A stretch of DNA of 64,000 nucleotides from Candidatus Magasanikiibacteriota bacterium (lineage in GTDB: Bacteria > Patescibacteriota > Patescibacteriia > Magasanikbacterales > GWA2-37-8): contig JAHFHV010000001.1 in NCBI GenBank assembly GCA_023246725.1, positions 13,618 to 77,617 of the forward strand, given 5' to 3'. Positions 3,100 to 50,939 of the stretch are shown piece by piece (within the stretch, counting starts at the first letter, position 1; each line of letters starts with the position of its first letter). Under the pieces are notes generated by a model. The model had not been told where the DNA came from and made no database searches. It saw nothing but the letters and a program-made list of their open reading frames with translations. A program made the position numbers and the translations under genes.

Positions 3100-5565
3100 T
3101 TAGATAATAGTGACACTCGCCACTTTATCACCCTCTTCTTTAAAGCGCATCAGGCGAACACCCTGGGTGGCTCTCCCGGTGGTGTTAATTGATTTGAAAG
3201 GTAGGCGGATGACCTGGCCTTTGCCACTCATCATCATTAAGTCTTGGTTTTCCGCATTGGCGCGATTAATAACCTTGGCGTATACAATCGGGCCGGTTTT
3301 GGCGGTAACCTCGGCGGTTTTAATACCACTGCCGCCGCGGCCTTGCACTTTGTATTCATTTAGTTCGGTACATTTGCCAAGGCCATTAGCGCCCACGGTG
3401 AGGAATTCTAGGCTTTGGTTTTTGGGGTCCACAATATCCATGCCAATCACCGTGTCATCACTCCGAAGGCGCATGCCGCGTACGCCGGCAGCCGTGCGGC
3501 CCATACTGCGGACGTCTTTTTCTTTAAAGCGGATGGCCTGGCCACCTTTGGTCGCAATCATAAGTTCATCATTTCCAGTCGATGGCTTGACCCATTCTAA
3601 ATTATCATCGCCCTTAAGTTTAAGAGCGATAAGCCCACTCCGGCGAACATTAGCAAAATCGGCTAGTTCAGTTTTTTTGATGAGTCCTTTGGTTGTGACC
3701 ATCACTAAGTGTTTAATTTTTTCAAGGTTACTCATGGGCAGGAGTGCCGTAATGGTTTCGTTCGGGGCCAATTGTAAAAAGTTAACGAGGGCCTGGCCTT
3801 TGGCGGTGCGGCTGCCTTGGGGAATATCATAGGCCATGAGCTGAAATACCCGGCCGCGGCTGGTGAAAAACAAAATATTGTCGTGCGTGCTCACCGTCAG
3901 GAGTTGGTCCACGGATTCGTCTTCTTTGGTGGTAACACCAATCACGCCTTTGCCGCCGCGCGATTGCTGTTTGAAGGTGTCGGGCGGCAGGCGTTTAATG
4001 TAGCCATCGGTGGTTGTCATTACCATGGTTGGTTCGTTGGGGATCAGGTCTTCGGTAGTAAATTCTTTCACACCGTGGGCAATAATTTGGGTCTTGCGGT
4101 CATTGCCGTATTTCTCTTTGAGCGTTATGGTCTCGGTTTTTACAATGCCGAGAATCTTGCTCTCGGACGCTAAAATTGATTCCAATTCTTTAATGATGAA
4201 TTTTTTTTCTTTTAATTCATCTTCAATTTTTTGGCGCTCTAAGTTGGCTAACTGTTGCAGGCGCATTTCCAAAATCGCCGTAGTTTGCCGGTCGGTGAAT
4301 TTGAATTTTTTCATGAGTTCAACTTTGGCATCGTCTTTGTCTTTGGCCGCCCGGATGGTTTTGATAACCAAATCGATTTTATCCAGCGCCATACTTAAGC
4401 CTTCTAAAATATGGGCGCGGTCTTTATTTTTGACCAAATCAAACTCGGTGCGGCGGCGAATAACCACCTGGCGGTGCTTAATAAATTCCTCTAAAATATT
4501 TTTGATGTTGAGGACGCGCGGCTGAATGCCGTCGACCAGGGCCAGCATGTTGTAGTGGAAGGTGGTTTGAAGAGCGGTGTGGTTGTAGAGTTGGTTTAGA
4601 ATCTTTTTGGGATAAGCGTCTTTTTTCATTTCTATCACCACGCGCACACCGTCTTTATTAGATTCATCCCGAATGTCTTTAATACCTTCAATTTTTTTCT
4701 CTTGGACCAGGCCCGCAATTTTCTCAATCAGTTCCGCCTTGTTCACTTGATAAGGCATTTCGGTAACAATTATGCGGTACTGTCCATTTTTTGTTTCCTC
4801 AATTTCGGCTTTGGCGCGCATTACCACGCCGCCCCGGCCGGTCGCAAAGGCCGCCGCGATATCTTTTTTGCCATACACAATGCCGCCGGTCGGGAAATCT
4901 GGCCCCTGGATAATTTCATCCAGGTCTTCAATGGTAGTTTTGGGTTTGTCAATTAAGGCCACCACGCCGTCACAGAGTTCGCGCAGATTATGTGGGGGGA
5001 TAGACGTGGCCATACCAACCGCGATGCCGACCGTGCCGTTTAAGAGCAGATTGGGAACTTGCGTTGGTAAGACAGTTGGTTCTTGGTGTGAGCCGTCGTA
5101 GTTCGGGATGAAGTTAACGGTATCTTTGTCGATATCGGCGAGCATCTCTTCGGCCAGGGCGGTGAGGCGGGCTTCGGTGTAGCGCATGGCCGCGGCGCTG
5201 TCGCCATCCATACTGCCAAAGTTACCTTGGCCATTTACTAATTGGTGACGCATAGCAAAATCTTGGGCCATGCGAACCATGGAATCGTAAATGGCAGCGT
5301 CGCCGTGGGGGTGGTATTTGGCCATCACCTCACCCACCACGTGCGCGGATTTGCGAAAACGCGCGGTGTGGCGCAGGCCCAAATTGCCCATAGCATAGAG
5401 GATGCGGCGGTGCACGGGCTTGAGGCCGTCGCGTACATCGGGGAGCGCGCGCGAAATAATAACGCTCATGGCGTATTCCAAATATGATTGTTTCACTTCG
5501 TCCACAATCGGGGTGGGAGTAAGGCGGCCGATGTTGTTTTTAATAAGAGGAAGTTGTTCGGACAT
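3100..5565 (-). CDS. gyrA: DNA gyrase subunit A
   Basis: [28 protein letters not shown], active-site Tyr region, C-terminal beta-pinwheel repeats; 821 aa. Confidence 0.92.
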
Positions 5566-5590: not shown

Positions 5591-5710
5591 GTCATTCCGA
5601 ATCCCCCGTCACAGGGGGTGAGGAATCTCTGTCCAATCGTTGTCATTCCGACCGTAGTGGAGGAATCTCGCCAACAATCGCGAGATCCCTCGGCTGCGCT
5701 CGGGATGACA
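5591..5710. repeat. MITE-like palindromic element family 1 (GTCATYCYGA...GGATGACA), 1.5 copies
   Basis: Terminal inverted repeats gtcattccga/cgggatgaca; related copies at 13178, 16076, 23146, 25217, 27229, 45026, 49713. Confidence 0.8.
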
Positions 5711-7102: not shown

Positions 7103-7486
7103 ATGTACAAGCGAATAGTCCTTCCAGGTAAAATGGGGTCGGCGGGCGGGATCTCTGACGGGCTTTCACTCATGCTCGTGCCCTGTGGGCGGGCCTTCTG
7201 GGTCCACCACAACCTCAATGTGCTGGGATGGAACAGGGCGTGGGCGCCACCGCTCGTCCTCACGCAGAGCCAGGTGCCAGAGGAGTGGCTCGCCAAGGGC
7301 GCTTCGGTCTTGTGGGCTGACCAGGTGACACTCGACGAATGCAACTATTTCTCCAACACCCAACTCGGTGACGGCAGCTACCTCGTCCTGTTCACGCACA
7401 ACCACGGGAGCGGTTCTGATCGCGTGCACAAGATCGATCTGTTTGTCTCGCCGGGGCTCCCAGAGGTCGAACAGACCGAGCCTTGA
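7103..7486 (+). CDS. Hypothetical protein in high-GC island A
   Basis: ggaggaggtgaacc-ATG Shine-Dalgarno; region about 65% GC against about 45% backbone; no recognisable family. Confidence 0.4.
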   Translation: MYKRIVLPGKMGSAGGISDGLSLMLVPCGRAFWVHHNLNVLGWNRAWAPPLVLTQSQVPEEWLAKGASVLWADQVTLDECNYFSNTQLGDGSYLVLFTHNHGSGSDRVHKIDLFVSPGLPEVEQTEP

Positions 7487-7557
7487 TCCCGCTCTTCCAA
7501 TCGGCCAAGGAGGCAGGCATGGCCCGCGCACCGCCGTAAGGCATGCCGACGAAGAAC

Positions 7558-7625
7558 AGAACCACCTTCCGACGCATCATATATATAGTTCGCTGTATGT
7601 ATGGTGCGAGGGTGGTTTTTTGTTT
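7558..7625 (+). terminator. Long-loop hairpin + T-run element (gaaccaccttc...gagggtggtttttt) shared with 34752-34820
   Basis: Stem aaccaccYtc/gagggtggtt, about 40-nt loop, T-run; conserved acgcatc and atggtgcgagggtggtttt in both copies. Confidence 0.55.
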
Positions 7626-8469: not shown

Positions 8470-9687
8470 ATGACAACTTCTAACAATAAAGACATTGTCA
8501 AAGCCGGCAGTTTTAAAACATTATTCCAGCTTCAGGCCATGGACGTGCCTAAGCCCGGGGACGTGATTAAAGGCAAAGTGATCTCCGTGGATAAAGGCGA
8601 GATCCATATTGATATTGAAGGCATGACGACCGGCGTGGTGCGCGGAGAGGAATTGTTTGCCGAATCCAGCGAGTACGGACATTTAAAAGTGGGAGATGTT
8701 GTGGAAGCCACTTTGGTGGAATTGGAAAACGAAAACGGCGAAATGGAATTGTCGTTCCGCATTGCCGGATTTAAGCGCGCCTGGGAAAACATGAAGAAAT
8801 TCCTTAAAGACGGACTTACCTTAAAAGCTAAAATTACCGGCGCGAATAAAGGCGGACTCATGATTCAGGTGGAAGCCTTGGCCGCGTTTATGCCGGTGTC
8901 ACAATTATCTCCGGATAATTACCCGCGTGTGGCCGGCGGCGACAAGAATCGCATTTTTGAAAAGTTGCGCGAAATGGTGGGCAAGGAAATGGAGGTAAAA
9001 GTGATTGACGTTAATGAGATGGAAGAAAAATTAATTGTGTCCGAGCGCGCCGTGTGGGAAGATTCCCAAAAGGCGGTGCTGGACGCCTATAAAATTGGCG
9101 ATGTGGTAGAGGGCGAAGTGTCCGCGCTTACTTCGTTTGGCGCGTTTATTCGCTTTGGCGAAGGACTGGAAGGCCTGGTGCATATTTCGGAAATTGCTTG
9201 GCAGAGAATTGACCACCCCAAGGATGTTTTAAAAGTTGGCCAAAAGGTAAAAGCGCAAATTATTCAGCTGGATCATTCTAAAATTTATCTCTCCATTAAG
9301 CGCACGATTGATGACCCGTGGAAAAGCGTGAAGGAGAAATATAAGGTAGGGGAGACGGTGAAAGGCAAGGTGCTTAAAATTGAATCATTCGGCCTGATGA
9401 TTGGGCTGGATAAAGATATTCATGGGCTGGCTCACATTTCTGAATTATCCGATGAGCCGATTGCCAACTTGGCGGATAAATTTAAGCCTGGCCAGGAACT
9501 GGAATTGGAAATTGTGTCCTTGGAACCAGCCGAGCACCGCTTGGGGCTTAAACTGGCGGGCGTTAAAGGCCGGAGCGGCCGGCGCAGCGAGGCCAAAGAA
9601 AAAATGGCTAAAGACGAGGGCAAGAAACTCCTTAAAGATGAAACTTTTGTAGGCGAGGAAAGGAAGCCGGAAGAGGTAAAAGAGTAA
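8470..9687 (+). CDS. rpsA: 30S ribosomal protein S1, short 4-domain form
   Basis: Four S1 domains (GDVIKGKVISV..., GDVVEGEVSALTSFGAFIRF..., etc.); start set at MTTSNNKD to avoid overlap with yafQ. Confidence 0.8.
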   Translation: MTTSNNKDIVKAGSFKTLFQLQAMDVPKPGDVIKGKVISVDKGEIHIDIEGMTTGVVRGEELFAESSEYGHLKVGDVVEATLVELENENGEMELSFRIAGFKRAWENMKKFLKDGLTLKAKITGANKGGLMIQVEALAAFMPVSQLSPDNYPRVAGGDKNRIFEKLREMVGKEMEVKVIDVNEMEEKLIVSERAVWEDSQKAVLDAYKIGDVVEGEVSALTSFGAFIRFGEGLEGLVHISEIAWQRIDHPKDVLKVGQKVKAQIIQLDHSKIYLSIKRTIDDPWKSVKEKYKVGETVKGKVLKIESFGLMIGLDKDIHGLAHISELSDEPIANLADKFKPGQELELEIVSLEPAEHRLGLKLAGVKGRSGRRSEAKEKMAKDEGKKLLKDETFVGEERKPEEVKE

Positions 9688-9727
9688 AAATATTAAACAG
9701 ATATTAAGAAAATATTAAACGAATATT

Positions 9728-11608
9728 ATGAGAAATTTTCTTAAAAATTTTATCTTCATTTTTCTCTGCCTATTTTTAATTGCCGGAGTTATTAGCATGG
9801 TTCGCGGCGGCGCTACCACTAAGCCCGAGGTGATTGGCGTTGGCAAACTGGTGGAAGAAATTAATGCCGGAGCCGTGAAGCAAATTGTGGTACAGGGGGA
9901 TATGCTCCAGGTAACGCTGAAAGACGACAAAGCCAAGCCCCAGCAAGTGAAAAAAGAAATGCAAGAATCGTTTGGCGACATTATGAAAAATTACGGGGTG
10001 AGTGATGACGCCCGTAAACAACTCCAGGTAGAAGTAAAAGACGAAAGCTCGTGGAAGTACTGGCTGATTAATTTGCTCCCGAGCATTTTGCCGCTCATTT
10101 TGTTCGTGGTCATCATCTACTTTATGAGCCGCGGGGTGCAGGGCATGAATAACAAGGCCATGGGGTTTGGGCAGAGCAACCCGCGCCAGGTAAAGCCGGA
10201 AGATAATAAAGATAAAAAAACCTTTACGGACGTAGCGGGCGCTAAAGAGGCTAAAGAAGAATTAGTGGAAGTGGTGGACTTCCTCAAGGACCAAAAAAAG
10301 TTTACCGACATGGGCGCGAAGATTCCCAAAGGAGTTTTGCTCACCGGTTCTCCCGGGACGGGCAAGACACTCCTCGCGAAAGCCGTGGCCGGGGAAGCCA
10401 ACGTGCCGTTTTTCCACATGAGCGGATCGGAATTTGTGGAAATGTTTGTGGGTGTTGGGGCCAGCCGCGTGCGTGATTTATTTAGCAAGGCTAAAAAAGC
10501 CGCCCCGGCCATTGTGTTTATAGATGAAATTGATGCCGTGGGTCGACGCCGCGGGGCGGGCATGGGCGGCGGGCACGATGAGCGCGAACAAACCTTAAAC
10601 CAAATTCTGGTGGAGATGGACGGGTTTGAAACTAACCTCGGCGTGATTGTGATGGCCGCCACGAATCGGCCGGATGTTTTGGATCCGGCTTTGCTCCGAC
10701 CAGGACGTTTTGATCGGCGAGTTGTCATCGATCTTCCGGACATTAAAGACCGCGAAGAAATTTTACATATTCACGCCCGTAATAAAAAATTGGCTACCGG
10801 AGTAAGTCTGCGCAATATTGCCGAGCGCACGCCCGGTTTTTCCGGCGCGGATTTAGCCAACCTCTTAAATGAAGCCGCCATTCTCACGGTGCGCCGCACT
10901 TTGCCGGAAATTGGCGAGCCAGAAGTTTTGGAAAGCATTGAAAAAGTACTCTTAGGGCCAGAGCGCAAGAGCCGCATTATTTCCGAGCATGAGAAAAAAG
11001 TTACGGCATATCACGAAGCCGGCCACGCCGTGGTGGGGTATGTGTTGCCGCACGGCGACCCGGTGCGCAAAGTCTCCATTATATCGCGCGGCCAGGCCGG
11101 CGGCTACACTCTTAAGATGCCGGATTATGACCGCCACTATCATACTTTGGCCCAGTTTAAAGATGAACTGGCCATGTCCCTGGGCGGTTACGTGGCCGAA
11201 AAATTATTTTTTGGCGACGCGTATGTGTCTACCGGCCCATCCAGCGATCTTAAAAACGCCACGCATATTGCCCACAACATGATTACGCGCTATGGCATGA
11301 GCGATACGCTTGGCCCGCGCACCTTTGGCGAACAGGAAGACCTGGTATTTATGGGCGGGCGCACCGGCGAAGAGCGCGACTTTAGCGACAAGACTGCCGA
11401 GGTGATTGACGCGGAAATTAAGCGGCTCATGGTAGAAGCGGAAGCGACAGCCAAGAAGACAATTGAGGCGAATCGTGCTACACTAGAAAAGATGGTGGCG
11501 GTACTCCTCCAAAAAGAAACCCTGGAGCAAAGCGAAATTGAGGCCATTATGGGCCGGCCGCAGAAAAAGGCCGTTAGCGGCGCCCCAGGCGTTGTAGTAC
11601 AAGAATAA
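9728..11608 (+). CDS. ftsH: ATP-dependent zinc metalloprotease FtsH
   Basis: N-terminal TM helices, Walker [25 protein letters not shown] zinc site. Confidence 0.92.
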
Positions 11609-11625
11609 TTTTAACTTATAATCAT

Positions 11626-11886
11626 ATGTCAGGCAGAGAAACAGCGGCTATCAATATTCCAGAAATTAGACGCGAGCTTTTTCTGAGAGGACTTCGTGAG
11701 CTTAAAACCATGCCGGCGAAAGATGCGGCGCAGTGGCTGGCGCGGAACGGGTTTACCCGTCAAGACATGCTTGACCCTAAAATGAATTTCGCAGGCACTT
11801 TAAAGTCAGCTCTCGGGAGCAAAGAAGGGGCGGAAGTCATTAGTCAGCTAAGCAGTATTGAGTCGGAAAATAAAGCCGCCGCCTAG
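11626..11886 (+). CDS. Hypothetical protein
   Basis: 86-aa ORF directly after ftsH, followed by terminator. Confidence 0.35.
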   Translation: MSGRETAAINIPEIRRELFLRGLRELKTMPAKDAAQWLARNGFTRQDMLDPKMNFAGTLKSALGSKEGAEVISQLSSIESENKAAA

Positions 11887-11892
11887 AATTCA

Positions 11893-11925
11893 AAAATCCC
11901 TTGCCGAATTGGCGAGGGATTTTTA
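11893..11925 (+). terminator. Rho-independent terminator
   Basis: aaatcccttgcc-gaattg-gcgagggattttt. Confidence 0.75.
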
Positions 11926-12074
11926 ATTCCACTTGAATCTATCTTTTAAGACAAACTCAAGTGGATGACGGAGCTATAAAAAAATAAGATAAATTATGAG
12001 TCCCGCATCCACCCTGCTTACGCAGTCTGTGTGGGCAGTCCCCGCGAGGCTCCGTCAGACTCGTGGGAGGCTGG

Positions 12075-13067
12075 TTAGCGCGCTGGTTCGACGATGCGGA
12101 ATCCAATCCGTTCGTTAGCAGCCCGTCCGGCTTTGGTCGTGTTTGGCAACATTGGCTTAGTACTGCCAAAACCAGCCATCATCAGTCGCCCGGACGGTAC
12201 TCCCATTATTTCCACCAGATATTGCCCAACTGTTTGGGCGCGCTTTAGTGAGAGACCGAGGTTTTTGCCGGCATTACCCCGATTGTTAGTGTGCCCTTCA
12301 ATGCACACAAGGCTTATGTCTTGCCTGGCGATAAGCGCATTGGCGACCGCGCCGAGCACCGGAAAGCTCCGGGGCAGGATGGTTTCTTTGCCTCGCGCGA
12401 ACCTGATCGGCGAGAGCGTCATGATCATTCCGGCCCTGATTTCTACCAGTCCCGGACAGCCATTCTTGCTAGGGTCCGGGTCGGGCGCGCCACGCTGGTC
12501 GGGGCAAGCGTCTAAGTGGTCGAGCACCGTGTCTTCATCGCGGTCGCGAATCGGACACCCCCGGTATTCGGGGCGCTTATCGGGGTGGGGTCCGGCTGGA
12601 ACAGTTTTACATTCGTCAGCTTCGTTCCCGATGCCGTCGCCGTCGCTGTCCGGGTTGGGCGGCGGCTTCGGCACCGCCTCACGCAGGGGCGGAGCCGGAA
12701 TCGCGGCCGTCTTTTGCGTGTCGGCGATTAACCGTTCCATGTCCGCGATCTTGGTTTCCACTTCGTCGCGGTTCGGTGCCTTGGGCGCTCTCCGGATGTA
12801 CGTCCGGTAGAAGCGCAGGGCTTCCAGGTGCTTCCCGGCGAGTCGGAACGACTGCGCGATGTTGTAGAGGAGCACCGGATCGTCCTTGATCTCGTAGGCC
12901 TGCTGGAAGGCCACGATTGCCTCGTTGTACTTGCCTTGGTCGAATAGGCTGGTGCCGCGCTTGTAGTGCTCGCGGGCGGCCGAGGCCTCGTACTGGATGG
13001 GCTGGCCGAAGGCGAGCGAAGAGAAGACGACGAGGGCGGTGGCGAGAGCGATGGCGATGTGGCGCAT
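12075..13067 (-). CDS. Secreted TPR-repeat / thrombospondin type-3 repeat / OmpA-domain protein, in high-GC island
   Basis: Signal peptide, TPR (YNEAIVAFQQAYEI...), TSP3 Asp-rich Ca-binding repeats (DSDGDGIGNEADEC, DRDEDTVLDHLDACPD), C-terminal OmpA-like; about 62% GC. Confidence 0.7.
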   Translation of the reverse strand: MRHIAIALATALVVFSSLAFGQPIQYEASAAREHYKRGTSLFDQGKYNEAIVAFQQAYEIKDDPVLLYNIAQSFRLAGKHLEALRFYRTYIRRAPKAPNRDEVETKIADMERLIADTQKTAAIPAPPLREAVPKPPPNPDSDGDGIGNEADECKTVPAGPHPDKRPEYRGCPIRDRDEDTVLDHLDACPDQRGAPDPDPSKNGCPGLVEIRAGMIMTLSPIRFARGKETILPRSFPVLGAVANALIARQDISLVCIEGHTNNRGNAGKNLGLSLKRAQTVGQYLVEIMGVPSGRLMMAGFGSTKPMLPNTTKAGRAANERIGFRIVEPAR

Positions 13068-13177
13068 GAAATCCTCCTTGGTCCAAGTTGGACACTTTAC
13101 CCTACAATATTTTGGCCAGTTTGTCAAGGTTGTGCTATACTGTAAGCAGGGTTAACTCATAGCCAATCTCATCAACT

Positions 13178-13269
13178 GTCATTCTGACCCCGCACTTGCG
13201 GGGGAAGAATCTCTGTCCAATTGGTCAAATAACGACCGACAGAGATCCTTCACTGCGTTCAGGATGACA
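13178..13269. repeat. MITE family 1 copy
   Basis: gtcattctgaccc...gttcaggatgaca. Confidence 0.8.
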
Positions 13270-13297
13270 GGCCAAAAATAAACCTAATTTTTTAATT

Positions 13298-16061: not shown

Positions 16062-16075
16062 CACTCTACCGTTTG

Positions 16076-16186
16076 TCATCCTGAGCGTAGCGAAGGATCT
16101 CTGTCTTGTTCAATTGTTAAATTGCTGTATTGTTGGTGATTGGTAGAGAGATCCTTCAGTCGCTGCGACGCTTCTTCAGGATGACA
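16076..16186. repeat. MITE family 1 copy
   Basis: tgtcatcctgagcgtagcgaaggatctc ... cttcaggatgaca. Confidence 0.8.
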
Positions 16187-23093: not shown

Positions 23094-23145
23094 AGTGATT
23101 GTACAATTTATTAATAATAAAAATTTTAAAAAAATATATCAAATT

Positions 23146-23226
23146 GTCATTCTGAGTGAAACGAAGAATCTGTTTCGATTGGCCAAACAACAACCAACTA
23201 GATCCTTCGCTCTGCTCAGGATGACA
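23146..23226. repeat. MITE family 1 copy
   Basis: gtcattctgagtgaaacgaagaatct...ctgctcaggatgaca. Confidence 0.8.
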
Positions 23227-23230
23227 GACG

Positions 23231-25858
23231 CTATTTTTTCATAAGTAAACTCCACACAGTATCGCGCTCCAAAGGCTGGCTAGGAATTTTTCCGCCGTTG
23301 CTCGCCGGAACCATATCGCTCCCATCCTGCCAGACCGGCCTCCAACCATCCGGAAAAATAATTTGGCTATCAAATTTGCTCTCGGAGCCGGATTGACGCC
23401 CCACGACTAATTGGTATGAAGCGGCCTGTGCACTTGTCGATCGCTCGTTTTGAAAGGCGGTAAAGGGAAGTTTATAGACGAATTCAATGCGGCTGGTTGC
23501 CCCCGGCTCCGTAATTATCCAATTTCCAAAGGCTGTCTTGCCAAACTCTTCGGTAACGCGCGTGCCGGTACGCGCCTCAATGCCGATCTCGGTTTCTTTG
23601 GCAGTTAGGGCGGCGTCGGTTACGGCCCAGGGGTCGGGAACGCGAAAGAGCGTCTCGTTTGGCCAGCTAAAACCGCTGACCGAAATAAGCGCGCTGCCTT
23701 TGGGAACATATAGGCGGAGATAATCTATATTGGCAGTACCGTACAATTTTTCGCCAAAGGCACCAGTATGCTCGCGCATAATGGTGACGGTATTGGTAAT
23801 GGTGCCATTTTCTTCAACCACTGCCTGGTGGCTGATATTTTGTTTAATTTTACTATCGGATTTTTCCCCCTGGATATTGGTATTAATGGCCATGAGAAAA
23901 TCTTGGTCCGCTCGCGTTGTGGGCACAGCTCCGCTCCAGCCTAAGGCAACCAAGGCGCTCTCGGCCTCTTCGTCGGTATTATAGAGCTGAATTTCTTTTT
24001 GCTCCAGCGCGTTTTCAAGCTGGTGTAAAACTCCCAGGAGCGAGCCCAGCGGGGCTTTTTGAATAGTGTCCAAAAGATTAGGCGCCAGATCAGCCAGAAT
24101 TTGTTTGGGAGTATTGGCAGTTTTCTCCGGGCCGGTTTCAATAATTTTTTCTAAGATGGGGAGTGCGCTCTCGGCCGAGAGTGTGAGCGAACGGGAGTTA
24201 TCGGTTAAAGGGCCAAGCACACTAAGAAGCCTTTCCAACACCGTTCCATTAATCGCAATCACCCCATCCAAGGTTACGCCGCGGCTATGGCGGTAAAACC
24301 ACAGCATCTTGTCCGCGCTGGCGGGGAAGTCCGGAAACCAGTTAGCGTCCTGGAATTCCCAGCGCTTGTTGGCAAGGAGCAGAGGCGTGGGCGGTTTTAC
24401 GTACGCGTTGAGCTGTCCTTGCAAATCGTAGCTGCCGCCGGGGGGCAATTTAAAGCTTAACAGCTGGCCATCTTTTACCTCAATTACGGCAAAACTGCCC
24501 ATAAAGCCGCCAGTCGGTCGCAATTCGTGCTGGTTTTGGAAAACCAGCAGAAAGCGCCGCCGGCCAGTCTGCCCTAAAAATTCTTTCAGGGGCCCCGCCA
24601 GCTCTGTAATTACTTCCAGGTCGTGGCTGATCGCATTCACCACTTTTTTAACATTGGCAAAATCGGCCTGATGCTCTGCCGGCAGCACGCTGATATCCAC
24701 GCGCGCTAATTTTTTCTGGGCCGCCTGGTAATGAGGCAAGGTGGCTTTGACGCCAGCCAGAATTGGTTCCAAGTGTCCAAGGAGCGTAGCGCCCGGCGCT
24801 ATGTTTCCTTGGCCAAGAGACGAAAAGAGATAGGAATTTCCGAGAGCAATATCTGCGCCGGCCAGCAGTACGTTTTCTTTACTGGTAATATTGTTGCCTA
24901 CTCTGGGGAGCATCGCGGCCACGGTGGCCAAAAATCCATGCTTGGTTTGCAGCAGGCTCGCGGCTTTGTTAAGCTGCTTAAGGGCAAGGTCTGTAGTTTC
25001 TTCGGCTAAGGAAATATTACCGCCTCTTAAGGCGTCGGTGGAATTTTTTAACGAAGCAAACCCGGCTAAACTTTGCGCGGTAATTTCGTTAGTATCATCT
25101 TTCAGGCTGGTAACATAACCAAAACTGGCGCGCGGCAGAATAATAACCAAGACAATAACAGCGAGCGCCCAGCGGAGTTTAAAATTTTGTTTTGTAATGA
25201 GGCGAGAAAGCAGTGTGTCATTTCGAGTCCTATGGTCCCGCGGCGAGCGGGATCCGCGATCCTTCGGGATCAGGACAATCCCCTCGTTTTCAGAAAGAGC
25301 TCTGTAATCAGTGGGATCGCCACGCCCCGCTTGAGCGGGGCTCGCGATGACAATAGCACGCTTCACCACCTTCTCTTTTTTGTCATGCCACCACTCACCG
25401 CACGCAGTTACCATTTGTTGTAAGTGTGATATTGGTTTTAAAGAATCAAACCTACTAGGACTTGCTTGGTCTTGATCTAAATCTTGATCGACACTTTGTG
25501 CAAACAATCTTTCGGGCGCACTCGGCAGTTTATGATAATAATGGTAGAGCGGATTTTGAGAATCAACGGGAGCCGCGGCGGTAACATTTTTCCACACCTC
25601 TTTTTTATGGTGGCGCATGTCAATAACATAGGGCGAGGCGGCGGACGCGTGACTAACATGGTGCACAAAAAATTTCAGCGGCGTTCTTGAAACAGGCGCT
25701 GGCGGAGGCGTCGTTGAAGTTGGAGCGCTGGGAAGGACAACAACAGGGCAAGTGGCTTTATTGTGGCCAGCTTTTTTACAGCTGCCGCAGCGGCGCAGTT
25801 GGCGAGAGGGTGATTCTTTGGACATGAAAAACAAACAATGGGAATGGAAAATTCTCAT
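23231..25858 (-). CDS. Hypothetical large single-pass membrane protein with N-terminal CCHC zinc-knuckle
   Basis: CGSCKKAGHNKATC (C-X2-C-X4-H-X4-C), TM WALAVIVLVIIL, about 640-aa extracytoplasmic domain; alternative start 25825; possible leaderless (tataat 5 nt before ATG 25858). Confidence 0.55.
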   Translation of the reverse strand: MRIFHSHCLFFMSKESPSRQLRRCGSCKKAGHNKATCPVVVLPSAPTSTTPPPAPVSRTPLKFFVHHVSHASAASPYVIDMRHHKKEVWKNVTAAAPVDSQNPLYHYYHKLPSAPERLFAQSVDQDLDQDQASPSRFDSLKPISHLQQMVTACGEWWHDKKEKVVKRAIVIASPAQAGRGDPTDYRALSENEGIVLIPKDRGSRSPRDHRTRNDTLLSRLITKQNFKLRWALAVIVLVIILPRASFGYVTSLKDDTNEITAQSLAGFASLKNSTDALRGGNISLAEETTDLALKQLNKAASLLQTKHGFLATVAAMLPRVGNNITSKENVLLAGADIALGNSYLFSSLGQGNIAPGATLLGHLEPILAGVKATLPHYQAAQKKLARVDISVLPAEHQADFANVKKVVNAISHDLEVITELAGPLKEFLGQTGRRRFLLVFQNQHELRPTGGFMGSFAVIEVKDGQLLSFKLPPGGSYDLQGQLNAYVKPPTPLLLANKRWEFQDANWFPDFPASADKMLWFYRHSRGVTLDGVIAINGTVLERLLSVLGPLTDNSRSLTLSAESALPILEKIIETGPEKTANTPKQILADLAPNLLDTIQKAPLGSLLGVLHQLENALEQKEIQLYNTDEEAESALVALGWSGAVPTTRADQDFLMAINTNIQGEKSDSKIKQNISHQAVVEENGTITNTVTIMREHTGAFGEKLYGTANIDYLRLYVPKGSALISVSGFSWPNETLFRVPDPWAVTDAALTAKETEIGIEARTGTRVTEEFGKTAFGNWIITEPGATSRIEFVYKLPFTAFQNERSTSAQAASYQLVVGRQSGSESKFDSQIIFPDGWRPVWQDGSDMVPASNGGKIPSQPLERDTVWSLLMKK
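25217..25352. repeat. Two adjacent MITE family 1-type palindromic elements inserted in-frame in CDS 23231..25858
   Basis: gtcatttcgag...ggatcaggaca and ...gccacgccccgcttgagcggggctcgcgatgaca; the latter matches half-copy at 48035-48072; encodes linker between Zn-knuckle and TM. Confidence 0.7.
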
Positions 25859-25993
25859 TCTTTATTATACACTACTTATGCACAATTCCCAAGCCTTGTT
25901 TTAGTGTTGCCATTTCTAGGCGCGGGGAGTATTATTATAGCGGTAGCGGTGTTAGATATTGCGAAGATATTAAGAGAATATTAAAAAAATATT

Positions 25994-27205
25994 ATGTTAT
26001 ATTTAAGCGAGCTTTTAAAACGCCCGATTCGCGACAGTTCGGACACCAAAGTCGGGCGGCTTGTGGATATTGTGATTAGTCCCCGGGCCGGGGAGTATCC
26101 GCCGCTCTTGTTTTTGGTTATGGAAGCAAAGCGGACTGAACAGCGGATTTTTATTTCGTATGCCTATGTGGCTAATGTAAGCCGCGAAGAAATTGCCTTA
26201 AAACATTTGTTTAAAACCATTCCCGAAGGCGCTCCAGCCGACGGAGCGGTGTGGTTGTGCCGCGATATTTTGGACGAACAGATTGTGGATGTGGAAGGCG
26301 CGCGGGTGGTACGCGTCAACGACTTGCGTCTGGGGACTTTTGAAAATCAATTATGCGTGCTGGGGATTGACGTGAGTTTTAAAGGGCTCCTGCGCCGTCT
26401 TGGCCTCTCGGGTATGGATGTGTTTGAGATGTGGCCAGTTAATTTAATTGACTGGCGGAAAGCGCAACTCGTCAAGGGGGTATTAAAGCTGGATACGATT
26501 TTAAAAGATTTGGTAAAAATCCACCCGGCTGACCTGGCTAACATTGTGGAAGATTTGAGTTTGAAGCAAGGTGGCAAACTGGTGAGAAGTTTGGATGCCG
26601 CGGCCGCGGCGCATGTTTTGGAAGAACTGGATCCGCATATTCAAAAAACTCTGGTGCATTATTTGGGGCCGGAGCGGGCCTCCCAGATTGTAGCGCAAAT
26701 GTCGGTTGATGAGACGGTTGATCTGTTAAAAATGCTGCCCAAACAAGAGGCAACGGAATTTTTGTCGTACATCCAGGGCAGCAAGCTGGCCAAGGTTAAA
26801 AAATTGATCAGTTACTCCGAAGACAGCGCCGGCGGGCTTATGACTACTGAGCACGTGGCGGCCCGGCCGGATTGGACCGTACTTCAGACCATTGACGAGG
26901 TACGCCGCTTATCGGACCGCATGCGTTCCATTGTGCATGTGTATATAACCGATGATGAGGGTTATTTTAAAGGTTCGGTGTCGCTCCGGCGCCTGCTGTT
27001 GGCGCGCCCGGGCGACGCGCTTAAAAATATTATGAAACGCCTGCCCAAACGCAACGTATTAAAAATTGATGATTCGATTAATAAAGTAATTAAAATGATG
27101 ACTAAATACGATTTGTACACCGCGGCCGTTTTGGACAAAGAGCATAAACTGGTGGGAGTCGTAACGATTGACGACGTGATGCGACACCTGGTGCCAAATG
27201 CCTAA
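25994..27205 (+). CDS. Soluble PRC-barrel + MgtE-N + CBS-pair protein, no membrane domain
   Basis: MgtE N-domain-like acidic helical region, tandem CBS; lacks MgtE TM helices. Confidence 0.65.
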   Translation: MLYLSELLKRPIRDSSDTKVGRLVDIVISPRAGEYPPLLFLVMEAKRTEQRIFISYAYVANVSREEIALKHLFKTIPEGAPADGAVWLCRDILDEQIVDVEGARVVRVNDLRLGTFENQLCVLGIDVSFKGLLRRLGLSGMDVFEMWPVNLIDWRKAQLVKGVLKLDTILKDLVKIHPADLANIVEDLSLKQGGKLVRSLDAAAAAHVLEELDPHIQKTLVHYLGPERASQIVAQMSVDETVDLLKMLPKQEATEFLSYIQGSKLAKVKKLISYSEDSAGGLMTTEHVAARPDWTVLQTIDEVRRLSDRMRSIVHVYITDDEGYFKGSVSLRRLLLARPGDALKNIMKRLPKRNVLKIDDSINKVIKMMTKYDLYTAAVLDKEHKLVGVVTIDDVMRHLVPNA

Positions 27206-27228
27206 ACACGAGACACAAGAAAACCAGT

Positions 27229-27324
27229 TGTCATTCTGAGCAAAGCGAAGAATCTCTGTCCATCATTCACTTACAATAGAGCAATTGAACGAGACAGAGA
27301 TCCTTCACTGCGTTCAGGATGACA
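27229..27324. repeat. MITE family 1 copy
   Basis: gtcattctgagcaaagcgaagaatctc ... gttcaggatgaca. Confidence 0.8.
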
Positions 27325-27355
27325 GAAAAAAAGCGTTCCGCAGTCCAAAATAAAT

Positions 27356-34098: not shown

Positions 34099-34698
34099 AT
34101 GGACATGACCAAGGAAGAGAGCGCGGCCCTCGCGCTCAAGCTTGCCTTGGAAGGGGCCATTGCGGCCAAGGGCGGCGACCCCGGTGTCGTCATGCGACTC
34201 CTCAAGAATGAGTCCTGGCTCGAGCTGGTCGCCGCGCAGCTCATGGAGCTGGCGATCGCCGAGGGTAGCATCTTTACTCTCCTGCTCGACCGGCGTCCCG
34301 GCGTTATCGCGCGGCTGATCGAGGAGGCCGGCTACGAGGGGTACAAGAATCCGGAGATCACCGACGCGAAATACCAGGTCGCGTCCGGGGGGCTGGTCCC
34401 GGTGCGGTTCCGCACCGTCCCGGGCAAGCAGCTCAAGAGCCCCGACGAGTGGGTCTGGCGGAACAACGCCGAGGCCGCCTTCCACAAGATGGGTCTCCAA
34501 TTCCCGGATCCCGCCGAGGCCCTCCTCGTCCCCGCCAAGAACCGGCAGACCGGCCGCGGCAGGCCCTACGTCGCCTTCATCCAGGGCGCCAGCTGCGCGT
34601 TCTACGTAAGCGAGAGAGACCGGAGGCGCAGCCTCGACCTAAGCGGCGGCAACTGGTACCCGGAATACGAGTTCGTCGGCGTCGAGAAGCAGAAGTAG
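34099..34698 (+). CDS. Hypothetical protein in high-GC island B
   Basis: ggggagg SD; about 67% GC; no family recognised. Confidence 0.4.
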   Translation: MDMTKEESAALALKLALEGAIAAKGGDPGVVMRLLKNESWLELVAAQLMELAIAEGSIFTLLLDRRPGVIARLIEEAGYEGYKNPEITDAKYQVASGGLVPVRFRTVPGKQLKSPDEWVWRNNAEAAFHKMGLQFPDPAEALLVPAKNRQTGRGRPYVAFIQGASCAFYVSERDRRRSLDLSGGNWYPEYEFVGVEKQK

Positions 34699-34751
34699 TG
34701 TTCGTGTCTCCTCCCACCCCCCGGAATCGGCCGCGGGGTGGAGAGGCTAAT

Positions 34752-34820
34752 GAGAACCACCCTCTCAACGCATCGTGATTACGAAAATTTCGTAATTATG
34801 GTGCGAGGGTGGTTTTCTTG
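34752..34820 (+). terminator. Second copy of long-loop hairpin + T-run element (aaccaccctc...gagggtggtttt)
   Basis: Perfect 10-bp stem; shares acgcatc and atggtgcgagggtggtttt with 7558-7625. Confidence 0.55.
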
Positions 34821-34846
34821 ATTTAATATTGTTAGAATGGTATAGT
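34818..34846 (+). promoter_or_regulatory. Promoter ttgatt-17-tatagt
   Basis: Read directly. Confidence 0.4.
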
Positions 34847-36337: not shown

Positions 36338-36343
36338 ACAAGT

Positions 36344-36895
36344 GTTTATAGCAGATGATCGCCCGCTCAACGCGCAAGCGCCTGAGCGGGAGGAAAGTCC
36401 GAACACCCTCAGTTTTTTCGCTACCTGCTGAGAAAAGGATAGTGGGTAACACCCACCGTTCCGATGGCAACGTCGGAAAAGGGACAGTGGCACAGAGACA
36501 ATACTACTTTGTCGCGCCGCAGCCTTGGCGAAGGCGGAACCATAAGAATCCCCGCCTTCGCCAAAGCTATGGCGCGGCAAAGGAAAGGTGAAAAGTGTAT
36601 GGGAGTTTTGGTTCTTAAGACCAAAGCTACGATACTCCGTCCCGTAGCAATGCGGGATGTGTGCTAAACCCTGTCTGGTGCAAGAGCAGCGTTTTCGTCG
36701 CAAGGCGAATTCGTAAAGTTCGCTCGCATTGCCTCGCCGAAGCCCCGCAACTGCGGGGCGAAGGCAGGCTTGATCCGGTTAGCAATAACCGGGCTAGATA
36801 AATGATCATCACCACGGATTCTTTGCACGGATCAACACAGATATTAGTGAAGATCAGTGTAAAAAATCCGTGGTACAAAATTCGGCTTATCGCTG
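36344..36895 (+). ncRNA. rnpB: RNase P RNA (bacterial type A-like) with expansion hairpins
   Basis: P4 halves gaGGAAAGUCCGaac (bulged U) and acaaaaUUCGGCUUAucg, GGGUAAcaCCCACC, cUAGAUaAAUGAuc; ends in terminator hairpin 36896-36934. Confidence 0.65.
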
Positions 36896-36963
36896 TAAAC
36901 CGCGCACCACGACAAAATTTGTCGTGGTGCGTTTGTTAGTCATAAGAAGTTGGGGACTGGCTA

Positions 36964-44968: not shown

Positions 44969-45025
44969 TTTTGGGGTATACTGGTTCCTTATTAAATAGT
45001 CTGCATTGCTCAATGCATTTTTACT

Positions 45026-45135
45026 GTCATCCTGAGCGTAGCGAAGGATCTCTGTCCGGTTCAATTCTCACATTGTTCTATTGCTATATTGTTAGTGATT
45101 GAGACAGAGATTCCTCCTTCGTCGTCGGAATGACA
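45026..45135. repeat. MITE family 1 copy
   Basis: gtcatcctgagcgtagcgaaggatctc ... cgtcggaatgaca. Confidence 0.8.
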
Positions 45136-45142
45136 AGACGTT

Positions 45143-48668: not shown

Positions 48669-50939
48669 ATGAACCTCACAACCCCGGTAAGCGAACTCAC
48701 CAAGGTAGGCAAAACCGCGGCCAAGCGCCTGGGGTATCTTGGCATTCACACCGCCCAGGACTTATTGTATTACTTTCCGTTTCGCTACGAAGACTATCGC
48801 CGCGTGGTTTTAATTAAAGATTTGCGAGACGGAGAGAGTGTTACCATTAGTGGAGCAGTGGAACTAATTTCCAATCGGCGCAGTTTCCGCAGCCGCAAGA
48901 TGGTTACCGAGGCGCTCATTCGCGACCACAGCGGGAGCTTGCGCGTGGTGTGGTTTAACCAGCCGTTTATTGGCAAGGCGCTCCGCCCGGGCGATAAAGT
49001 TTATCTCTCGGGCGCTGTTAAAGGCGATCTGCTGGGGGCCCAAATGGTCAGCCCGGCTTATGAAAAAATTACGTCGCGGGAAACTACCTCAACCGCGCGC
49101 CTGGTGCCAATGTACGCGCTTACGGCCGGACTTACCCAAAAACAAATTCGATTTTTAGCCCAGCAAGTAGCGCCGTTGGCCGAGCAGCTGTCTGATTGGC
49201 TGCCAGCCAAAATTTTAGGACAGTATGATTTGATTCCACTGCCCCAGGCTCTCCGCGGCATTCATTTTCCGATTGATGAAGCGGCTCTTAAAAAGAGCAC
49301 CGAGCGATTGAAGTTTGATGAGTTATTGCTGCTCCAGCTTCAGGCTGAAGACAGTCGAAAAAACAGATTAGACCACAGCGCGCCCCAGCTTACTTTTCAC
49401 CAAAGCGCTCTGCAAGAGTTTGTGGGCCGCCTGCCGTTTACGCTTACCAAAACCCAAAAAATCGCGGCCTGGGAAATACTTCAAGACATCCAAAAATCAA
49501 CTCCGATGAACCGCCTGCTCTCGGGCGATGTTGGCTCGGGCAAAACCGTGGTGGCGGCTATGGCGCTGTACTCAGCATTTTTAAATGGTTACCAAGGAGT
49601 GCTCATGGCGCCAACCGAGATACTCGCGGCCCAACACTTTGCGTCTTTGTGTAGATTGTTTAGCGGTCTCCCTATTTCAATTGGGTTACTTACGGCTAAT
49701 CAAGTTTCAACTGTCATTCTGAACGGAGCGCAGCGCAGTGAAGAATCTCTGTCTCAATCAATCAACGGAGAGAGATCCTTCGCTACGCTCAGGATGACAG
49801 TTGCTAAAAAAGAAAAAGAAGGATTTTTGAAAAAATTAGCTATCGGAGAAATAAAGATCATCGTTGGCACGCACGCTTTGCTTTCGGAAGGGGTACATTT
49901 TAAAAAACTCGGCCTGGTGATTGTGGATGAGCAACATCGATTTGGCGTGGAACAGCGGAAGGTTATTAAGGAGAAATCATTGACGACTTCCAGCCAGACC
50001 TCTCTCACCGCTCTCTCCTCTGCAGAGGAGAGAGGTACGGTCACACCCTCTCCTTTGCAAAGGAGAGGGCAGGGAGAGGTCTCGCAATCGGCGCATTTTT
50101 TAAGTATGACGGCCACTCCCATCCCGCGTTCATTGGCTCTTATGTTGTATGGCGACCTCGACATTTCTATCATCAGTGAACTTCCGCCGGGACGCAAGCC
50201 AATTATCACGCGCCTGGTGGAGCCAGCCAAACGGGAAAAAGCCTATGAGTTTATTCGGGCACAGGTGAAAAATGGACGACAAGTATTTGTGGTGTGTCCG
50301 CTGATTGAAGATAAACAGGCTGGTGCGATTGTTGCCCCCCTGCGAGGGGGTGGTTCTAACGACAAAAGATCAGTCTTGAGTGAATATGACAAACTATCCC
50401 AACAAATTTTTCTTGACCTCCGCGTAGGCTATCTACACGGTAAAATGAAAGCTAAAGAAAAAGATGGGGCAATGGAGAAATTTAAACAAGGCGAGACCGA
50501 TATTCTTGTGTCCACGTCGGTCGTAGAAGTCGGCGTGGACATCCCGAACGCCAGTGTGATGATGATTGAAGGCGCGGATAAATTTGGCCTGGCGCAACTG
50601 CACCAATTCCGCGGACGCGTGGGCAGGTCAATCCATCAATCATATTGTTTGCTGTTTACCGATAGTGATTCGTATCGCTCTTCCGAGCGATTAAAATATT
50701 TTGAAACGCACCACGATGGTTTTAAACTAGCGGAAAAAGATTTGGCTATGCGGGGGCCAGGCGAAGTGTATGGCACGGAGCAAAGCGGCCTGCAACAACT
50801 CCGGCTCGCGAAATTGACTGATCAGGGCATAATAAAAAAAGCGCGCGAGGTGGCGCGCGAGGTGGCTCCAGACATTAAGAAATATCCTAAACTTTTAGAA
50901 AAGATTAAAGAGTGGGAGCGAGTGGTGCATTTGGAATAA
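48669..50939 (+). CDS. recG: ATP-dependent DNA helicase RecG, with in-frame palindromic insertions
   Basis: Wedge domain, helicase motifs (GDVGSGKT, DEQHRFG), C-terminal TRG motif; 756 aa. Confidence 0.9.
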   Translation: MNLTTPVSELTKVGKTAAKRLGYLGIHTAQDLLYYFPFRYEDYRRVVLIKDLRDGESVTISGAVELISNRRSFRSRKMVTEALIRDHSGSLRVVWFNQPFIGKALRPGDKVYLSGAVKGDLLGAQMVSPAYEKITSRETTSTARLVPMYALTAGLTQKQIRFLAQQVAPLAEQLSDWLPAKILGQYDLIPLPQALRGIHFPIDEAALKKSTERLKFDELLLLQLQAEDSRKNRLDHSAPQLTFHQSALQEFVGRLPFTLTKTQKIAAWEILQDIQKSTPMNRLLSGDVGSGKTVVAAMALYSAFLNGYQGVLMAPTEILAAQHFASLCRLFSGLPISIGLLTANQVSTVILNGAQRSEESLSQSINGERSFATLRMTVAKKEKEGFLKKLAIGEIKIIVGTHALLSEGVHFKKLGLVIVDEQHRFGVEQRKVIKEKSLTTSSQTSLTALSSAEERGTVTPSPLQRRGQGEVSQSAHFLSMTATPIPRSLALMLYGDLDISIISELPPGRKPIITRLVEPAKREKAYEFIRAQVKNGRQVFVVCPLIEDKQAGAIVAPLRGGGSNDKRSVLSEYDKLSQQIFLDLRVGYLHGKMKAKEKDGAMEKFKQGETDILVSTSVVEVGVDIPNASVMMIEGADKFGLAQLHQFRGRVGRSIHQSYCLLFTDSDSYRSSERLKYFETHHDGFKLAEKDLAMRGPGEVYGTEQSGLQQLRLAKLTDQGIIKKAREVAREVAPDIKKYPKLLEKIKEWERVVHLE
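49713..49799. repeat. MITE family 1 copy inserted in-frame in recG (87 bp = 29 codons)
   Basis: gtcattctgaacggagcgcagcgcagtgaagaatctctgtc...gagatccttcgctacgctcaggatgaca. Confidence 0.85.
49995..50082. repeat. Family 5 twin-hairpin element inserted in-frame in recG
   Basis: ctctcctctgcagaggagag and ccctctcctttgcaaaggagaggg hairpins; encodes SLTALSSAEERGTVTPSPLQRRGQGE. Confidence 0.7.

Follow-up and report, generated by a model that had tools for sequence, protein, structure and literature searches.

The question raised by this locus is how a bacterium from the candidate phyla radiation (CPR, Patescibacteria) came to carry a GC-rich gene whose product combines tetratricopeptide repeats (TPR), thrombospondin type 3 (TSP3) repeats and, at its C-terminus, an OmpA-like peptidoglycan-binding domain. 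The gene lies within a stretch of 64,000 nucleotides from Candidatus Magasanikiibacteriota bacterium (contig JAHFHV010000001.1, positions 13,618 to 77,617), which is referred to as the window and to which all coordinates refer unless another locus is named. As best explanation we propose that the gene is a xenolog, which would have been captured from a high-GC, Myxococcota-like pool of diderm bacteria by the ancestor of at least two Magasanikbacteria lineages and then kept. To a single old acquisition before the split of these lineages, followed by faster yet constrained evolution of the protein, we assign a probability of about 0.65. The initial annotation, made from the sequence alone, had described the gene as a Deltaproteobacteria-style lipoprotein gene in a low-GC host, possibly derived either from recent horizontal gene transfer (HGT) or from a contaminating contig join. 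The gene and the parts of its product are as follows, with pLDDT standing for the predicted local distance difference test score of the AlphaFold2 (AF2) model:

12075..13067, minus strand: coding sequence of the predicted secreted TPR/TSP3/OmpA-like protein, 330 aa, stop codon at 12075-12077
13005..13067, minus strand: Sec-type signal peptide, aa 1-21 (MRHIAIALATALVVFSSLAFG/Q), read from sequence and hydrophobicity, without a lipobox Cys
12711..12989, minus strand: TPR module, aa 27-119, 2.5 repeats (Pfam TPR_1/TPR_2, AF2 model)
12657..12710, minus strand: Pro-rich flexible linker, aa 120-137, read from sequence, pLDDT <50 at aa 126-131
12453..12656, minus strand: two TSP3-type, Asp-rich, predicted calcium-binding repeats, aa 138-205 (alignment to 5wtl)
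12078..12452, minus strand: OmpA-like peptidoglycan-binding domain, aa 206-330 (PF00691, Foldseek to 5wtp)
12285..12287, minus strand: codon AAC for Asn261, replacing the near-invariant Asp of the GHTD motif (same protein in four assemblies)

Origin and age of the gene

The gene is compositionally foreign to its host. It has 61.3% GC and a GC content at third codon positions (GC3) of 0.731, and the region 11990-13130, which begins and ends with a sharp GC step, has 60.3% GC, a value attained by just 8 of 1258 equal-size sliding windows across the window. The high GC content of a minus-strand gene was therefore annotated correctly, whereas the host is not of low GC, since the window averages 48.8%. 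Codon usage of the host is split, with a mean GC of 0.68 at four-fold and of 0.39 at two-fold degenerate sites, and for this reason plain GC3 understates the foreignness of this island (C) as well as of two further islands of the window (A and B, see below). At two-fold sites, the gene has a GC content of 0.67 compared to 0.39±0.045 in the 38 other genes of the window (z=+6.2).

The window protein is identical to the public protein P0001, which gene callers of public assemblies likewise give as 330 aa, and four further public contigs, two of them from European Nucleotide Archive (ENA) assemblies and two from Logan assemblies that go back to different runs, encode the identical protein. The four contigs, which go back to at least two ENA analyses and two Sequence Read Archive (SRA) runs with different assemblers, align gap-free to the window at 99.93-99.97% identity across both GC boundaries. 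The sharp GC step at both ends could be taken as a sign of an assembly chimera with a contaminating fragment in a CPR contig, as could the two Logan contigs which end at 13255/13263 within a dispersed host repeat. However, all four assemblies span both junctions, the promoter, ribosome-binding site (RBS) and terminators suit the surrounding genes, and an orthologous arrangement is present in an unrelated metagenome-assembled genome (MAG) from Lake Baikal. The four gap-free assemblies and the Baikal ortholog exclude the contig join that had been considered, and the probability of a chimera is negligible.

The Baikal MAG (Candidatus Magasanikbacteria Baikal-deep-G194, SICD01000003.1; here L005) encodes the ortholog P0002 with 340 aa and 47% identity over 98% of the length. 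Its gene has the same position and orientation between FtsH and a divergent 318-aa multi-pass membrane protein, which is followed in both genomes by a PilB-like ATPase, a 383-aa protein, threonyl-tRNA synthetase (ThrRS) and MiaA, and the flanking proteins are 65-89% identical between the window and the MAG. P0002 has a GC content of 0.613 and a GC3 of 0.757 in a locus of 46.6% GC with a gene GC3 of about 0.48. The best hit of the window protein does therefore come from the same lineage, but instead of having a GC content similar to that of its surroundings it is equally GC-anomalous in its own genome.

Homologs were sought in two ways. A word-indexed search covered 5.8 billion clusters, and HMMER was run exhaustively against 1.84 billion representatives, the latter yielding 84,873 hits at E≤0.001. 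Among the hits of both, P0002 is the sole full-length match. The remaining strong hits cover residues ~137-329 only and belong to TSP3+OmpA proteins of 450-650 aa; those with a name are mostly assigned to Myxococcota, Myxococcales, Sandaracinaceae, Sorangium or ‘Deltaproteobacteria’, and the identity to many Myxococcota-labelled proteins is 47-57%. For two of the nearest non-CPR homologs, the contigs (1.5 Mb and 456 kb) have 64-67% GC; the GC3 of the two is 0.89-0.95, and they are native there. Since the CPR copies are GC-anomalous and the high-GC diderm homologs native, the donor side of the transfer is a high-GC diderm pool and the recipient side the CPR, and the proposed HGT from a high-GC donor is supported by both the two-fold-site composition and the GC content of these nearest relatives. 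The suggested Myxococcota architecture holds for one half of the protein: TSP3 repeats and OmpA-like domain are nearest to Myxococcota/‘Deltaproteobacteria’ proteins, but the typical donor protein consists of a beta-barrel, TSP3 repeats and the OmpA-like domain. The full-length order of signal peptide, TPR, TSP3 and OmpA-like domain was found among the 1.84 billion representatives in the two CPR genomes only, the metagenomic protein P0173 being a looser analogue. A search of metagenome contigs for further orthologs gave just distant TPR or OmpA pieces, and no relatives were found on the viral contigs searched.

With these homologs in view, it can be asked whether the gene is a native, vertically inherited CPR gene, the GC content of which results from a protein rich in Ala, Pro, Gly, Arg and Asp. 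In line with this, the GC content at second codon positions is raised (0.47 versus about 0.39 in the host), and GC at four-fold sites (0.76) is no outlier compared to the host (0.68±0.09). Moreover, the sole other GC peak of like height in the window (0.62, at 57.6-59 kb, with a strong AT skew) is indeed due to amino-acid composition and not to foreign codons: it belongs to a 649-aa low-complexity protein rich in Pro, Ala, Glu and Gly with a C-terminal membrane region (57368-59317), which has a two-fold-site GC of 0.47. However, the synonymous two-fold sites of the OmpA-like gene are 6 sigma off, no full-length CPR homolog beyond P0002 was found in either search, and thousands of homologs exist in diderm phyla with native composition, so that a native origin is very improbable.

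Concerning the age of the transfer, P0001 and P0002 are exclusive sisters in neighbor-joining (NJ) trees of the C-terminal module, in 99 of 100 bootstraps with 112 sequences and again in 84 of 100 with the 66 nearest of 240. Synonymous divergence (dS, Nei-Gojobori) between the two is about 1.5 for the gene; for six genes on its flanks it is 1.5-2.7, and the values are without exception near saturation. As the CPR copies are sisters and their dS is in the range of the flanks, the transfer would predate the split of the two well-diverged Magasanikbacteria lineages, and the recent date that had been considered is not supported. The ratio of nonsynonymous to synonymous divergence (dN/dS) is about 0.30 for the gene versus 0.05-0.13 for its flanking genes, which shows that the gene has been kept under selection. 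Indels between P0001 and P0002 are in frame without exception, conservation is highest in the TSP3 core (70% identity, all four Cys kept), and promoter core, RBS and 3' hairpin are common to both loci.

Several observations weigh against this single old acquisition or against the role proposed below. The sister relationship (84-99%) comes from NJ trees with long branches, which can mislead. A rough two-state estimate of amelioration based on the dS of the flanks predicts a two-fold-site GC of about 0.43-0.49, which fits the OmpA-domain part only (0.47) and not the TPR part (0.82). An Asp at the GHTD column is present in 111 of 112 homologs, as well as in P0002, and is replaced by Asn261 in the window protein, whereby the predicted wall binding may be weakened, altered or retuned. 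The protein identity of 47% is well under the 65-89% of the neighbors, and GC3 has remained at 0.73-0.76 in both orthologs although the synonymous sites of the flanks are near saturation (dS of 1.5 or more). GC3 also decreases from 5' to 3', in the window gene from 0.86 in the TPR part (aa 1-125) to 0.72 in the TSP3 part and 0.61 in the OmpA-like domain, where it approaches host values, and in P0002 with 0.80, 0.81 and 0.68 for the same parts. With the metagenomic TPR/Pro-rich/transmembrane protein P0245, the TPR module of the window protein shares 73-80% identity, but with the TPR of P0002 only 39-43% (80% versus 43% at the upper ends), which hints at a mosaic history. Finally, a search with the 318-aa protein, aimed at relatives with an empty site, revealed three further Magasanikbacteria/Patescibacteria loci, on all of which the contig ends 88-717 nt upstream of the 318-aa gene. 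In two of them (L007, L009) only 88-194 nt are left, and the third (L008, Magasanikbacteria CTOTU14245, 41% GC) has at positions 3-503, adjoining the 318-aa ortholog upstream, an unrelated GC-rich gene (GC 0.64, GC3 0.81) with no Pfam match and, by eye, a terminator-like hairpin. Judged from this gene, recurrent capture at the locus is possible.

Identity, composition and the L008 gene at the same spot would fit a hotspot, meaning that the intergenic region between FtsH and the membrane protein repeatedly takes up GC-rich cassettes by recurrent capture or allelic replacement. As variants, the CPR copies or merely their 5' TPR halves could go back to separate, more recent entries from related donors, or the gene could have moved between CPR lineages by recombination via the conserved flanks. 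The small open reading frame (ORF) between FtsH and the OmpA-like gene also differs, with 86 aa in the window (11626-11886) and an unrelated 193 aa in L005 (11201-11782). Neither ORF has a family match, the window one in a scan and the Baikal one in precomputed annotation only, and this variability appears to be another sign of a variable slot. On the other hand, the C-terminal modules of both copies are sisters (84-99%), promoter core, RBS and the hairpin of the 3' untranslated region (UTR) are shared, the full-length architecture is otherwise unseen among the representatives, the dS of the gene equals the range of its flanks, and integrase, tRNA or flanking direct repeats are missing. The TPR identity can be read differently as well. 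A module with 64% identity is present in P0199, a 2217-aa OmpA+TPR protein from a genome of 43% GC, from which it follows that this module type is simply well conserved; module identity may thus mean constraint and not recency. The 80% identity to P0245 was therefore dropped as proof of a recent second transfer. On balance we consider a hotspot unlikely, and one old capture followed by retention remains the preferred reading.

Domain architecture and proposed role

The N-terminus of the protein consists of MRH, 17 hydrophobic residues (mean Kyte-Doolittle value 2.4) and AFG/Q, and this heuristic reading agrees with the annotated signal peptide. The designation as lipoprotein, however, was rejected, as there is no lipobox and the first Cys is residue 153, whereas P0002 has a possible lipobox (TSGC). 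The TPR motifs noticed earlier exceed the Pfam cut-offs for both TPR_1 (PF00515, 42 bits versus 27.8) and TPR_2 (PF07719, 38.1 bits versus 27). In the AF2 model (mean pLDDT 87.9), an N-terminal hydrophobic helix is followed by paired TPR helices up to residue 93 (aa 47-60, 64-76 and 80-93), a capping helix (100-119), the disordered linker, a well-predicted Asp/Cys-rich region poor in secondary structure (138-205) and the alpha/beta OmpA-like domain (206-330, pLDDT 91-98).

The evidence for the TSP3 repeats is divided. The two peptides quoted initially were confirmed (DSDGDGIGNEADEC at aa 139-153, DRDEDTVLDHLDACPD at aa 175-190), the region contains four Cys (153, 171, 188, 204) bracketing two copies of a DxDxDGxxDxxD motif, and it aligns to the TSP3 repeats of 5wtl (E=2.9e-26), but the Pfam model TSP_3 (PF02412) stays below its cut-off of 25 bits with 20.9 bits in the window protein and 23.7 bits in P0002. 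The window also encodes a DsbA-like Thioredoxin_4 protein (55426-56073; mildly raised GC of 0.57, two-fold-site GC 0.54), a possible extracytoplasmic disulfide-forming enzyme that would be relevant to the folding of Cys-bracketed TSP3 repeats. The C-terminal OmpA-like domain was identified correctly (PF00691, 70.3 bits versus a cut-off of 27.2, E=1.8e-19, model positions 1-97 of 98), and Foldseek additionally matches it to AbOmpA (3td3/3td5), Pal (1oap) and MotB. OmpA-like domains have two key ligand contacts, namely the Arg of the LSxRRA motif, which in solved A. baumannii OmpA complexes is in contact with the diaminopimelate carboxylate, and the Asp of GHTD. The former is kept as Arg276, like in 112 of 112 homologs, in contrast to the latter, which is Asn261 as described above. 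No barrel domain was matched in Pfam, and no strands are modeled N-terminal of aa 208.

The 3' two-thirds of the gene would thus encode the periplasmic part of an outer-membrane tether of the TraB/OmpA type, composed of beta-barrel, TSP3 repeats and OmpA-like domain, in which a Sec signal peptide together with a short TPR module, the latter of a kind likewise frequent in the donor pool, has taken the place of the barrel; this fusion may have arisen either in the donor or in the CPR ancestor. TraB itself is built of a beta-barrel, TSP3 repeats and an OmpA-like domain (PMC12045341), and CPR bacteria are regarded as belonging to a monoderm clade (bioRxiv 10.1101/2021.05.31.446380). As the cell lacks an outer membrane and the protein lacks a barrel, a wall-anchored role is to be expected rather than that of a tether, and the protein would act as wall-anchored adaptor or scaffold. 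After export via the Sec pathway, the OmpA-like domain would dock non-covalently on peptidoglycan, the disulfide-locked and calcium-loaded TSP3 repeats would form a stiff spacer, and the TPR module would offer a protein-binding surface away from the wall. For TSP3 repeats of bacterial OmpA, disulfide-dependent calcium binding is reported (Dai et al., 2017, as cited in PMC12045341). In P0002, the possible lipobox would add a membrane anchor and thereby make the protein Pal-like. The proximity to the pilus ATPase cluster is conserved in the window and in the Baikal genome, and a functional link is putative.

With the same origin, the protein could alternatively be a factor of the interface between epibiont and host, namely a secreted adhesin gripping peptidoglycan or envelope proteins of a Myxococcota-like host. 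Patescibacteria are described as largely obligate epibionts (PMC12102498), the module has a donor-like specificity, the gene adjoins the PilB-like pilus ATPase cluster, the binding residue is altered (D261N), and the protein evolves faster than its neighbors (dN/dS 0.30 versus 0.05-0.13), as would be expected for an interface protein. However, the peptidoglycan of a Gram-negative host is located beneath the outer membrane, a host of this lineage as well as a functional role of the pilus ATPase adjacency are hypothetical, and the ortholog, with its resemblance to a lipoprotein anchored in the membrane, is in line with a role in the own envelope. We therefore regard an adhesin as improbable. The same low probability applies to a combination of both alternatives, according to which the slot between FtsH and the 318-aa gene is a recurrent landing site for self-contained GC-rich cassettes, which may carry their own promoter, RBS and hairpin terminator, and the protein is a barrel-less host tether at the interface with a Myxococcota-like host. 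If true, the genome itself would point to the host of this CPR lineage. We prefer the wall-anchored adaptor encoded by an old xenolog.

Expression signals, flanks and other islands

The signals around the gene are the following:

13072..13079, minus strand: ribosome-binding site AAGGAGGA, 4 nt ahead of the ATG, kept in the L005 ortholog
13099..13127, minus strand: promoter-like TTGACA - 17 nt - TAGGGT, inferred by eye from the stretch conserved with L005
11985..12074, minus strand: 3' untranslated stretch of the island with a hairpin and weak A/B-like arms at 12009-12024 and 12063-12076
11892..11965, no strand assigned: native flank with two hairpins (11892-11924 and 11928-11965), left edge of the island

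The gene starts with the ATG at 13067, upstream of which AAGGAGGA is located. The TTG at 13127, which the ORF lister had given as start, was rejected since it sits within the -35 box. The homologous stretch of L005 reads TTGACA - 17 nt - TAGGAT. A consensus scan called neither a promoter nor a terminator for the gene, and the -10 box matches 3 of 6 positions only. A small 3' hairpin at 12045-12063 (sense strand CGAGTCTGACGGAGCCTCG) has its counterpart in the L005 ortholog, the consensus being CGAGyCTGACGGAGCCTCG. It is more likely that the gene terminates at the two native hairpins, both of which are conserved in the Baikal genome. Their flank, which separates the OmpA-like gene from the convergent 86-aa ORF, is 80% conserved in L005, and the hairpin at 11892-11924 has an A-run and a T-run and thus the shape of a bidirectional terminator.

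At the end of each of the islands A (7103-7486 plus tail) and B (34099-34698 plus tail) there is a long hairpin with a T-run behind it. These very stable hairpins (tails at 7540-7625 and 34740-34825; fold z=-6.4 and -8.1) have the outer stem GAACCACC(C)T...GCGAGGGTGGTTTT in common, the exact 14-mer GCGAGGGTGGTTTT being present at 7606 and 34803 and nowhere else in the window. A weak copy of this element had been assigned to island C at 12017-12040. The literal CCACCCT..ACGCA pattern does exist there, as a 16-nt match at 12009-12024, and a 12/14 match resembling the A/B arm is found at 12063-12076 (p about 0.02-0.04), but island C lacks the 14-mer and has no significant hairpin on either strand compared to shuffled sequences (fold z=-0.6 and -1.0). 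Given such a marginal resemblance and a pattern defined post hoc, a link of island C to the A/B element is treated as unproven. With respect to mobility, neither an integrase nor credible flanking direct repeats were found, and the only tRNA of the window is at 40.1 kb.

The island-A ORF (127 aa, GC3 0.77, two-fold-site GC z=8.6) is an ORFan with itself as sole database match and no match in Pfam or NCBIfam. The island-B protein (GC3 0.895) has homologs in Patescibacteria only. One of these, with 55% identity in another CPR genome (L010 4001-6502), likewise constitutes an island of high GC (GC3 0.90, genome 46% GC), and its gene ends in a similar CACCCTCCACC...GGTGGAGGGTG-TTTTT hairpin. It is the target of a diversity-generating retroelement, with bAvd and a reverse transcriptase (RT) adjoining; its variable region (VR, 4472-4586) is 90% identical to the template repeat (TR, 4952-5066), and the mismatches are located at TR adenines except one. 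The 3' end of the island-B gene aligns to this VR, and neither a TR nor an RT was found near the gene within 33-38.5 kb of the window.

Further features of the window include a palindromic intergenic repeat of the REP/MITE type (repetitive extragenic palindrome/miniature inverted-repeat transposable element), composed of TGTCATCCTGAGCGTAGCGAAGGATCTCTGTC and its complement. It is dispersed at 13170-13270, 16067-16132, 23133-23234, 27217-27352, 44997-45100 and 49709-49807, and also at 5640-5669 and 45107-45136. The OmpA-like gene and the 318-aa gene have one of these copies between them, and it is there that the two Logan contigs break. Three overlapping (A/G)ATATTAA-type motifs with 11-nt spacing occur at 9679-9749 and 25945-26015, in both cases directly upstream of a start codon (FtsH and the gene at 25994), and are maybe a shared regulatory or promoter element. 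A match to bacterial class A RNase P RNA at 36343-36905 has 563 nt compared to the 367 positions of the model and therefore carries large insertions; an inverted repeat (36507-36582) lies inside it.

Relation to known systems and implications

Among the NCBIfam models, TraB, the protein for outer membrane exchange of Myxococcus xanthus (NF033763), is the best match with E=2.2e-42 at model positions 313-501 of 522, which corresponds to the TSP3 repeats and OmpA-like domain in the C-terminal ~200 aa of the window protein. TraB and related Myxococcota proteins follow the same logic of a calcium-binding spacer and a peptidoglycan anchor (PMC12045341). However, with 144.7 bits versus a family cut-off of 700 the window protein is not a TraB member, it has a signal peptide and a helical TPR module at the N-terminus instead of an outer-membrane barrel, its CPR host has no outer membrane, and a TraA partner is not known. 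The closest solved structure in both sequence and fold is the periplasmic part of OmpA from Capnocytophaga gingivalis (5wtl/5wtp; Dai et al., 2017), with a phmmer E-value of 2.9e-26 over aa 139-326 and a Foldseek E-value of 1.8e-13, and the OmpA-like domain superposes on 5wtp with a root-mean-square deviation of 1.0 Å, a template modeling (TM) score of 0.82 and 39-40% identity. This protein differs in being a barrel porin with more TSP3 repeats, the canonical Asp in GHTD and no TPR. The TPR and OmpA parts also match CHU_0125 (NF053607, outer membrane integrity), with 54.8 bits versus a cut-off of 620 and hence no membership, and P0173 combines TPR and OmpA with TSP3 at 34% identity to the window protein; both kinds are larger (514-639 aa), have more TPRs and do not stem from CPR. 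Small envelope proteins of the Pal/YiaD/YfiB type, which consist of an anchor and an OmpA-like domain, give significant matches at the domain level that all stay under their family cut-offs (Pal, TIGR02802, 46 bits versus 125); compared to Pal, the window protein lacks the lipobox and has TPR and TSP3 added. Classical OmpA/OOP porins differ by their N-terminal beta-barrel. Many envelope proteins, among them proteins of monoderms, are known to contain OmpA-like domains.

Patescibacteria are documented recipients of cross-phylum HGT; up to 13% of genome length is attributed to HGT into this group, and the transfers are mostly non-recent (PMC12455944). The gene described here resembles these cases as a compositionally deviant cross-phylum gene in a streamlined CPR genome, but most transfers reported there occurred within Patescibacteria, Myxococcota and OmpA have 0 occurrences in that paper, and in contrast to the islands described there the present one is a single-gene island without mobility genes. 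The components, i.e., TSP3-OmpA proteins, TPR+OmpA proteins and HGT into Patescibacteria, are therefore of known kinds, and the novelty is the uncommon domain order in an unusual host.

Current views are not overturned by this locus, which represents an ordinary but well-documented cross-phylum acquisition of modest importance. It provides a clean, assembly-independent case of a diderm envelope module that has long been retained in a CPR bacterium, a group treated as monoderm. The swap of barrel for TPR would show that a tether between membrane and wall can be re-used as wall-anchored adaptor. Moreover, the affinity to Myxococcota-like donors together with the lasting GC-rich codons could help to infer the ecological partners of Magasanikbacteria.

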